64,000 nt of DNA. Source: a virus. Taxonomy: Duplodnaviria > Caudoviricetes. The notes under the pieces are model-generated. The model ran no database searches and was not told where the DNA came from. It was given only the letters and a program-made list of their open reading frames with translations. The DNA lies in IMG/VR virus record IMGVR_UViG_3300017763_003980; one strand, written 5' to 3'. Of this stretch, positions 20,844 to 21,967 are shown piece after piece (within the stretch, counting starts at the first letter, position 1; each line of letters starts with the position of its first letter). The position numbers were made by a program, and so were the translations under genes.

Positions 20844-21743
20844 ATGGCAGAATTTAACCCCTTAACTGCTGACGCTAATTTAAAATCATTAGCCGATACA
20901 GGAAAAAATCCTTTAGAACAATACTTTAGACAGCCTAAAGTATATATAACCCTTCCTAGTAAAGGAAAATACTATGCAGATGGTGCATTAGATATTCCAG
21001 AAACTGGTGAATTTCCGGTGTTTGCAATGACAGCAAAGGATGAACTTACTATGAAAACACCTGATGCTTTATTGAATGGCGCAGCAACAGTTAGTGTTAT
21101 TAAAAGTTGTGTTCCTAATATTGTTGACCCTTGGGAATTACCTAGTATCGATCTTGATGCAATATTAATTGGTATTAGAATTGCTACATACGGCGAAATG
21201 CTTGATATTGATACAAAAGTTCCTGTAACAGGTGAAGATAAAACATTCCAAGTTGATCTAAGAAAAATGCTTAATAAATTAGTTACTGTTGACTACGAAG
21301 ATGAAATAAGTGTAGGTGACTTTACAGTTACGTTAAGACCGCTAACTTATAAAAAGTTTACAGAAACTAGTTTAAAAACATTTGAAGAACAAAGAATTTT
21401 TAATACAGTTAATGACGATGAACTGCCAGACTCGGATAAATTAGCTAGATTTGCAGAAAGTTTTCAAAAACTAACTGATATTACAGTTGCTATGATGGCA
21501 AATGGTATTGCAAAGATATCAATCGGTGACACTGAAGTTACTAATCCAGATCATATCTCAGAATTTATCGACAATGTTGATAAAAATGTTTATCAAGAAA
21601 TCCTTGATCATCTTGATAACCAAAGAAAAAAGTTTGTTATTGAACCAATGAAAGTAACTTCTACTCCAGAAGATATAAAAAATGGTGCTCCAGAAACATT
21701 TGAAGTTCCAATTACATTTGATCAATCAAATTTTTTCGCATAA
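20844..21743 (+). CDS. gp26: Baseplate hub assembly/tail assembly chaperone (T4 gp26-like)
   Basis: RQPKVYITLPS, MTAKDEL and LPSIDLDAILIGIRIATYG motifs; C-terminal NFF. Confidence 0.75.
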   Translation: MAEFNPLTADANLKSLADTGKNPLEQYFRQPKVYITLPSKGKYYADGALDIPETGEFPVFAMTAKDELTMKTPDALLNGAATVSVIKSCVPNIVDPWELPSIDLDAILIGIRIATYGEMLDIDTKVPVTGEDKTFQVDLRKMLNKLVTVDYEDEISVGDFTVTLRPLTYKKFTETSLKTFEEQRIFNTVNDDELPDSDKLARFAESFQKLTDITVAMMANGIAKISIGDTEVTNPDHISEFIDNVDKNVYQEILDHLDNQRKKFVIEPMKVTSTPEDIKNGAPETFEVPITFDQSNFFA

Positions 21744-21774
21744 GGATCTTATCTTGGGGCGAGGCTGAGATCCT
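21731..21774 (+). promoter_or_regulatory. Putative -1 programmed ribosomal frameshift cassette
   Basis: In-phase heptamer T TTT TTC (21731-21737), 5-nt spacer, hairpin AGGATCTTA/TGAGATCCT (21743-21774). Confidence 0.6.
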
Positions 21775-21790
21775 AGAAGAAGTCTCCAAA

Positions 21791-21967
21791 ATGCAAAATT
21801 TACAAAAAGAGCTCAAATCCGAAATACTTAAACTGTGTTGGTATATGCGTGGCGGAGTGTCTGTTAATGAAGGCTTTAATCTCTCATACGAAGAAAGATC
21901 GTTAATCACAGATATTATTCAAGATAATATGGAAACTACTAAGAAAAGTGGATTGCCTTTCTTTTAA
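21791..21967 (+). CDS. gp51-like small chaperone ORF (58 aa from ATG; probably also the -1 frame extension of the gp26-like gene)
   Basis: MQNLQKELKSEILKLCWYMRGGVSVNEGFNLSYEERSLITDIIQDNMETTKKSGLPFF; not in the ORF track; weak SD. Confidence 0.65.
   Translation: MQNLQKELKSEILKLCWYMRGGVSVNEGFNLSYEERSLITDIIQDNMETTKKSGLPFF

Follow-up and report, generated by a model that had tools for sequence, protein, structure and literature searches.

Does a phage gene whose final codons contain a run of six T encode one protein, or two? This question is raised by a gp26-like gene, belonging to tail-baseplate assembly, in a 64,000-nt stretch of DNA from an uncultured marine giant phage (IMG/VR record IMGVR_UViG_3300017763_003980); we refer to this whole stretch as the window. 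In its own reading frame (the 0 frame) the gene closes with AAT TTT TTC GCA TAA, and the frame shifted by -1, which is shut by a TGA at 21719-21721, is open from 21722 to a TAA at 21965-21967. We propose, with a probability of roughly 0.85 and on the strength of sequence comparisons, that the gene is decoded in two ways, giving a 299-aa short form together with a 374-aa fusion, the latter through a -1 slip at T_TTT_TTC with a hairpin; the slip would be ribosomal rather than transcriptional. We favor this reading because relatives conserve the heptamer, the open -1 frame and the hairpin, because the linker that follows the heptamer evolves as coding sequence in the -1 frame, because no start codon is conserved, and because long forms of the same protein occur elsewhere in a single frame.

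The gp26-like protein matches PF12322 ('T4_baseplate') with 51.2 bits (E 1.7e-13, the curated cut-off being 24.5) and phrog_150 ('baseplate hub') with E 4.2e-15, and its fold matches in BFVD are baseplate hub assembly proteins (best E 2e-19). An initial annotation, made from the letters of the window, had proposed a lambda G/GT-style -1 frameshift at the 3' end of this gene. The comparative evidence reported below strongly supports that proposal, and its account of the local signal holds in each particular. The heptamer stands in phase in the gene's last codons, at 21731-21737. The 9-bp stem that was said to begin 5 nt later, and to be extendable, does begin there and can be lengthened to 14 bp, including one bulge. 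The -1 frame is open from just after the TGA at 21719 through 21967, and the fusion, estimated at ~374 aa, comes to 374 aa (298 + 76 from a slip on the heptamer, with the junction ...QSNFF|RIRIL...). Finally, the internal ATG at 21791, described as having a poor Shine-Dalgarno sequence, lies without any GGAG-like motif upstream. The arms of the stem are AGGATCTTA (21743-21751) and TGAGATCCT (21766-21774), and the stem-loop as a whole (21743-21774) has a folding energy of -14.7 kcal/mol, with a z of -1.98 against dinucleotide shuffles. The coordinates of all features are collected in Table 1.

According to our proposal, most ribosomes would read through to the TAA and release the 299-aa short form. 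A fraction would be paused by the stem-loop 5 nt downstream, and in these the two tRNA-Phe, on UUU in the P site and on UUC in the A site, would slip back by one base and re-pair on U_UUU_UUC. The slipped ribosomes would then read CGC AUA AGG and onward, 76 codons in the -1 frame, to give the 374-aa form (...SNFF|RIRIL...). The short and long forms may act like T4 gp26 and gp51, taking part in baseplate hub assembly around the tape measure, the probable product of the adjacent gene, and the ratio of these two products, which share their N-terminal domain, would be fixed by the slip, as in lambda gpG/gpGT.

The relatives compared here are 80 IMG/VR loci, with 51-94% protein identity, among 189 confirmed IMG/VR relatives. 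The counts that follow refer to 62 distinct junctions: that of the window, those of 59 IMG/VR relatives, and those of Atu_ph07 and Phosso. Every one of the 62 has the sequence TTTTTTCG. Each has an open -1 frame as well, so that no stop, the finding that the initial annotation had held would speak against it, interrupts the linker of any close homologue; the open frame reaches 74 codons beyond the 0-frame stop in nearly all cases. Moreover, AATTTTTTCG is invariant in 60 junctions (all but Atu_ph07 and Phosso), including three 0-frame wobble positions, where ordinary third codon positions upstream have a mean entropy of 1.39 bits. Judged from these sequences, the conservation of AATTTTTTCG is far beyond chance.

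The heptamer also survives at greater distances. T_TTT_TTC is kept in the cultured phages 121Q, PA5oct and Vibrio 2.275.O, and Xoo-sp13 has T_TTT_TTT. What precedes TTT TTC in more distant phages is a codon for Asn, His, Tyr, Ser or Ala, yet its final base is always T; since the codon varies while its wobble T is kept, the constraint acts on the nucleotide and not on the protein. The position of the heptamer is unchanged where the 0-frame stop sits further downstream (L068, L069, L077, PA5oct and Xoo-sp13). For one relative, L062, a -1-frame TAA stands immediately before the T run, and the shift is therefore possible only on the heptamer. We also observe RNA-library contigs, derived from other and divergent phages, whose match to the window is confined to 35-82 nt around the heptamer and hairpin (21702-21783). 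As these contigs are unlike the window on both flanks of that interval, the frameshift cassette is the most conserved DNA of the gene.

It is important to ask whether such a configuration could be an assembly error or a recent frameshifted pseudogene, with heptamer and stem brought together by chance. Homopolymer runs are, after all, common sites of sequencing error and mutation. Against this, the same configuration recurs in 62 distinct sequences, obtained from numerous samples, and in six cultured phages that infect different hosts. In addition, 14 marine DNA runs from ~10 studies carry the window stretch word for word. We give error or decay a negligible probability; on the comparative data it is already refuted.

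The hairpin requires a more careful control, because its arms also encode the peptides R-I-L and E-I-L. We therefore compared each native junction with 200 synonymous recodings. The hairpin is stabler than its recodings in 51 of the 62 junctions (z below -1.64), and the mean z is -2.9. When this named structure is imposed on the sequences, 78% of cells are paired, as against 31-49% with slid partners. Eight of the 12 stem pairs are altered on both sides within the 62-sequence alignment, and the covariation score is 0.178, compared with 0.145 +/- 0.010 for shuffles. L068 and L069 have GG replaced by AA in one arm and CC replaced by TT in the other. A further group of relatives (L064, L082, L076 and L005/L008) has lost the usual 3' arm to decay, and a new complementary arm 10-18 nt downstream pairs with the unmoved 5' arm; such relocated 3' arms are, on these alignments, hard to explain by coding constraint. 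An excess of structure is found in the cultured relatives too (z -2.8 in 121Q and -3.1 in Xoo-sp13, and about -1.6 in PA5oct and Vibrio). The conservation in homologues for which the initial annotation had called is thus present in each of its three elements: the heptamer in 62/62, the open -1 frame in 62/62, and the hairpin, above its recoding controls, in 51/62.

The pattern of substitution tells us in which frame the extension is read. In the linker, taken as 8-56 nt after the heptamer's first T, the three -1-frame codon phases have entropies of 0.88, 0.57 and 1.18 bits across the 62 junctions. The remainder of the extension has 0.88, 0.54 and 1.40 bits, a pattern that the linker matches. 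The most variable phase is position 3 of the 0 frame upstream, and it becomes position 3 of the -1 frame from the heptamer on. The alignment of extensions shows conservation from the first post-slip codon onward, in the peptide FFR(I/V/M)R(I/L)L..(E/D)(I)L. Scans of the extension alone against Pfam, PHROGs and NCBIfam matched no family.

These observations bear on the possibility that the locus consists of two separate genes, such that the extension is made alone as a protein of 58-75 aa, from ATG 21791 or by termination and reinitiation, and no fusion arises. A 58-aa ORF (open reading frame) beginning at this ATG does appear in the window's ORF list, small ORFs are annotated in GenBank for Phosso, 121Q, Vibrio 2.275.O and Xoo-sp13, and some relatives have an ATG or TTG in the linker with an AAGGA-like motif. 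However, ATG 21791 is found in only 24 of the 62 junctions, no start position is conserved, and nine junctions have no ATG, GTG or TTG within the first ~37 codons. A gene with its own start would also leave unaccounted for a linker that is protein-conserved from the first codon after the heptamer, and a heptamer that is invariant at synonymous sites. We consider two separate genes very unlikely, the more so in view of the natural long forms described next, which fuse the same segment in frame and collinearly, and of an AlphaFold2 (AF2) model of one of them, in which the extension packs on the PF12322 body as one fold.

In a search for longer proteins that bear the extension, we found a 352-aa PF12322 protein, P0001, in which the extension forms the C-terminus in frame. 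It reads ...FDPSFIFRMRLL..., residue for residue collinear with the predicted FDQSNFF|RIRIL. The AF2 model of this long form (predicted local distance difference test, pLDDT, 94.9; predicted template modeling score, pTM, 0.92) places the extension against the PF12322 body within a single fold. A profile of the extension, run against 1.84 billion representatives, matched 424 proteins, and ~17 of the best 150 matches are proteins of 319-351 aa (50%-identity clusters) that carry the extension in frame at their C-terminus. For 121Q, the predicted fusion junction reads ...SHFFRVMLL... / ...SHFFRVMLLQSSPEEIQ.... As a separate observation, the 163-aa protein P0002 (JGI/ENA) joins the N-terminus of a PF00149 metallophosphatase to the C-terminal half of the extension (...WYMRGG...KKSGLPFF). 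Genuine domain shuffling, a gene miscalled across an overlap and chimerism in the assembly are all candidate origins of this protein.

Three contigs (L084, L096 and L097) carry a short PF12322 paralogue of 276-297 aa, which ends 3-10 residues past the FF/FL motif, and immediately after it the long gene. The same two products may thus come from one slipping gene or from two genes. These tandem pairs resemble the window in having the same domain, the same extension and the same two end products, and they differ from it in the single frame of the long form and in a short copy from which a usable slip site or the -1 ORF has been lost. The short paralogue of L096 (820-1704) still has T_TTT_TTC near its end (TCT TTT TTC AAT GAC TAA), and there the -1 frame ends after two codons; this heptamer looks like a relic slip site.

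A different route to the very same 374-aa fusion would be transcriptional slippage, in which RNA polymerase adds one U on T6 in some transcripts. The site is indeed a homopolymer run (T6, or T7 in Xoo-sp13), and the comparative protein evidence fits equally well, the product being identical. For bacterial RNA polymerase to slip efficiently, however, as is known from dnaX and insertion sequence (IS) elements (review, PMC5009743), a run of six U or T is short. The run is moreover held strictly in the X_XXY_YYZ phase, with a selected wobble T in a variable codon, and a stable hairpin follows it at 5 nt, as is usual for ribosomal -1 frameshifting. Part of the stretch is also found in 6 RNA libraries. 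Two RNA-library contigs (21450-21895 and 21652-21873) span the heptamer with exactly six T and no indel, although a minority species could escape contigs. This shows that the dominant RNA, if RNA it is, is unedited at the heptamer. Since they are contigs, in which rare variants are hidden and which are possibly derived from DNA, these data are no measure of slippage or expression. We regard transcriptional slippage as unlikely, and return to a ribosomal slip as the preferred explanation.

What, then, are the two products? In T4, gp26 (208 aa) and gp51 (249 aa) are hub assembly chaperones (Leiman et al. 2010, PMC3004832, Table 2); they are required for hub assembly, and gp51 is absent from the virion (PMC3004832). 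Both match PF12322 across the whole model (gp26 with E 9e-64, gp51 with E 4e-52), and both also match phrog_150. The gp26 C-terminus, ...KEFFELL*, ends three residues past the FF motif; the 0 frame of the window ends one residue past it, and gp51 runs ~48 residues beyond the gp26-like end. The initial annotation had described the locus as a gp26-like ORF joined to a gp51-like ORF. Its first half stands. The paralogues gp26 and gp51, though, have all of PF12322 in common. The downstream ORF is therefore not a gp51 homologue, and what it probably corresponds to is only the ~48-aa tail that is specific to gp51 and absent from gp26. From these alignments and models we infer that the 0-frame product is the counterpart of gp26, and that the whole frameshift fusion is the counterpart of gp51.

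The comparison with the gp51 tail relies on profiles and models. An hhalign comparison of the natural long forms with a gp51 alignment gives E 6.1e-5 and a probability of 65%, collinear from the N-terminal domain to the last residue, and the extension alone aligns with gp51 tail to tail (E 0.047). The AF2 model of gp51 (pLDDT 91.0, pTM 0.86) has four C-terminal helices after the last strand, in the same order as those of P0001; their lengths are 8/14/5/16 residues in gp51 and 10/28/5/21 in P0001. Single-sequence searches gave no match to phrog_634. A BLASTP match of 24 residues between the extension and gp51 41-64 (E 0.002 in one comparison) falls in the N-terminal domain, not in the tail, and we rejected it as chance. 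A mixed alignment of full-length proteins with extension fragments (A4) misplaced the fragments and was discarded. The motif CPxC...CxxC/CC, present in gp51 and in most natural long forms, is absent from the window protein, its close relatives and P0001; in gp51 and most of the long forms P0107-P0223 these four cysteines suggest a zinc ribbon.

The number of gene copies differs between genomes: among the three complete genomes in which we counted PF12322 genes, Atu_ph07 has one, Phosso one and T4 two. In a tree of N-terminal domains, which is unrooted, has long branches and includes only one gp26, the short copy of L084 falls inside the frameshift clade and its long copy is sister to that clade. 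The short copy of L096 also falls inside the clade, on a long and uncertain branch, and L096's long copy groups with other natural long forms. The two L097 copies are each other's closest neighbors (94/70), and T4 gp26 pairs with gp51 (92/85). The tree is compatible with repeated PF12322 duplications, and hints at them.

Tentatively, we view the short and long PF12322 proteins as the T4-superfamily counterpart of lambda G/GT, an idea to which we give somewhat less than even credence: a chaperone system for tape measure and hub would require two products that have their N-terminal domain in common, and for this giant T4-related phages would use a single gene with a -1 frameshift, which would repeatedly have been resolved into two genes by duplication (the tandem pairs, and T4 26 + 51). 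Atkins et al. (2016, PMC5009743) describe the G-T frameshift as conserved in phages with long tails, 'except T4'. If the need for two products is met in T4 by duplicated genes, this would account for T4 as the textbook exception to a near-universal frameshift of tail chaperone genes.

Several points weigh against the frameshift reading or its extension to function. The fusion product is a prediction from sequence comparison. The chaperone role, together with binding to the tape measure, would be an extrapolation from T4 genetics and gene position. U_UUU_UUC is not known to be among the best-characterized efficient bacterial slip sites. Approximately 11 of the 62 relatives have no significant excess of structure. 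RNAalifold, run on the 62-sequence alignment, recovered only pairing of the U run and not the stem as a consensus, which is why the hairpin was tested through the named structure and sequence-by-sequence recoding. Because RNA contigs would hide a minor T7 species, transcriptional slippage on T6 could occur at a low level. An ATG that overlaps the 0-frame stop or comes after it is present in 121Q and Phosso, and coupled initiation could add to the product in these two phages. Lastly, the link to the gp51 tail is moderate only, given the hhalign probability of 65% and the E of 0.047 for the extension alone.

We found no published report of a frameshift in PF12322 genes, in a literature search that did not cover subscription journals, and a joined coding sequence is annotated in none of the six GenBank records examined. 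If our reading is right, annotation would be corrected in giant phages of E. coli, Pseudomonas, Vibrio, Xanthomonas, Agrobacterium and Sinorhizobium, cultured phages in which the extension is now filed as a separate hypothetical ORF or left uncalled. The giant relatives of T4 would use a -1 frameshift in a tail-assembly gene of which T4 encodes both products as paralogues, so that recoding in some lineages and gene duplication in others would serve one and the same genetic requirement. Both gp51's role and T4's status as an exception become open to direct test, and studies of bacterial frameshifting gain a well-conserved natural cassette of U_UUU_UUC and hairpin.

Table 1. Features of the gp26-like locus and its neighbor, in window coordinates.
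Feature	Position	Strand	Remarks
Divergent neighbor, 1050 aa, probably tail tape measure	17612-20764	-	protein-atlas feature matches, composition, repeats, PA5oct position
TATAAATA, T4-late-promoter-type motif upstream of gp26-like gene	20792-20799	+	read from sequence
GGAG Shine-Dalgarno	20834-20837	+	7 nt upstream of gp26-like ATG
gp26-like baseplate hub assembly gene	20844-21743	+	0-frame product 299 aa (short form); PF12322 / phrog_150
Slippery heptamer T_TTT_TTC, predicted -1 shift site	21731-21737	+	in phase with 0 frame (X_XXY_YYZ)
Spacer GCATA, 5 nt	21738-21742	+	read from sequence
Putative stimulatory stem-loop	21743-21774	+	14 bp, one bulge, GGG loop
-1-frame extension	21737-21967	+	open frame, -1-frame codon periodicity

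The remaining features of the locus can be described briefly. Judging from the known consensus of T4 late promoters, the motif upstream of the gp26-like gene may act as a promoter. At the other end, a convergent ORF of 179 aa (21939-22478, minus strand), with no family match, overlaps the final 29 nt of the extension ORF. The divergently transcribed neighbor is probably the tail tape measure: its protein-atlas feature matches include the tape-measure families PF10145, PF20155 and PF05017 at 0.93-0.94, and it has a long Gly/Ala-rich hydrophobic segment at about residues 575-625 and a tandem array of about seven ~30-aa units that share the motif (I)GTSI..(T)WDD. Scans with hidden Markov models found no Pfam, PHROG or NCBIfam family in this protein, and BLASTP against T4 gp29 found nothing. 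In PA5oct, a virion protein detected by mass spectrometry is encoded at the position of the tape-measure-like neighbor; the record's note of electrospray ionization tandem mass spectrometry (ESI-MS/MS) stands on this neighbor gene and not on the PF12322 gene, which is only a weak hint that the PF12322 product, like gp51, is absent from the virion. The same layout, a PF12322 gene adjoining a divergently transcribed tape-measure-like gene, is found in 121Q, PA5oct and Phosso.

How does the window compare with the systems that are already known? T4 is among the closest. It shares with the window the PF12322 family itself, a short and a long form with the whole N-terminal domain in common, and a location of genes 26 and 51 adjoining hub and tape-measure genes; the modeled four-helix tail of gp51 may be the counterpart of the extension. 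Unlike the window, T4 has two divergently transcribed genes, without a frameshift, and gene 26 carries GAG TTC TTT GAG, which is not slippery; the gp51 tail is also ~28 residues shorter than the window extension. It may be mentioned separately that the ATG of T4 gene 25 overlaps the stop of gene 26 (TAATG; L083 3803), and hence lies in gene 26's -1 frame. There is no slippery site, and this overlap is ordinary translational coupling.

The comparison with lambda is of a different kind. Atkins et al. (2016, PMC5009743), where it draws on Levin 1993 and Xu 2004, gives lambda gpG/gpGT as an instance of the conserved -1 frameshift in tail chaperone genes of long-tailed phages. Both lambda gpG/gpGT and P2 E/E+E' resemble the predicted products of the window, in that a tail-assembly gene, by a -1 slip close to its 3' end, yields two products with their N-terminal part in common, one of them with an additional C-terminal domain; and in lambda, as probably in the window, the gene stands beside that of the tape measure. 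The slip sites themselves can be compared as well. The P2 heptamer, T_TTT_TTG, is similar to the window's. Lambda's site, G_GGA_AAG, is not known to have a strong hairpin, and in this the window, with its conserved hairpin, is unlike lambda.

There are further differences. The window gene does not occupy the lambda-type position, which lies between the tube and tape-measure genes and just upstream of the latter. Its protein has no detected similarity in sequence or fold to known families of tail assembly chaperones: searches of Pfam and PHROGs gave no such match except phrog_1749, at E 0.21, for the short paralogue of L084, and searches for a solved relative (PDB by sequence, Foldseek, and VIA-align wide) gave none, the best Z of 8.2 reflecting a generic helical hairpin only. 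The T4 counterparts of the two forms act in hub assembly, and binding to tape measure and tube is a lambda-type trait that could be extended to the window by analogy only. The mechanistic link between lambda and T4 that the initial annotation saw in this locus therefore survives as an analogy, and not as a homology to lambda G/T or other tail assembly chaperones, none of which was detected. On present comparisons, what the window and lambda G/GT would have in common is a logic, in which a -1 slip yields two products with the same N-terminus from a gene that adjoins that of the tape measure (in the window, the probable one).

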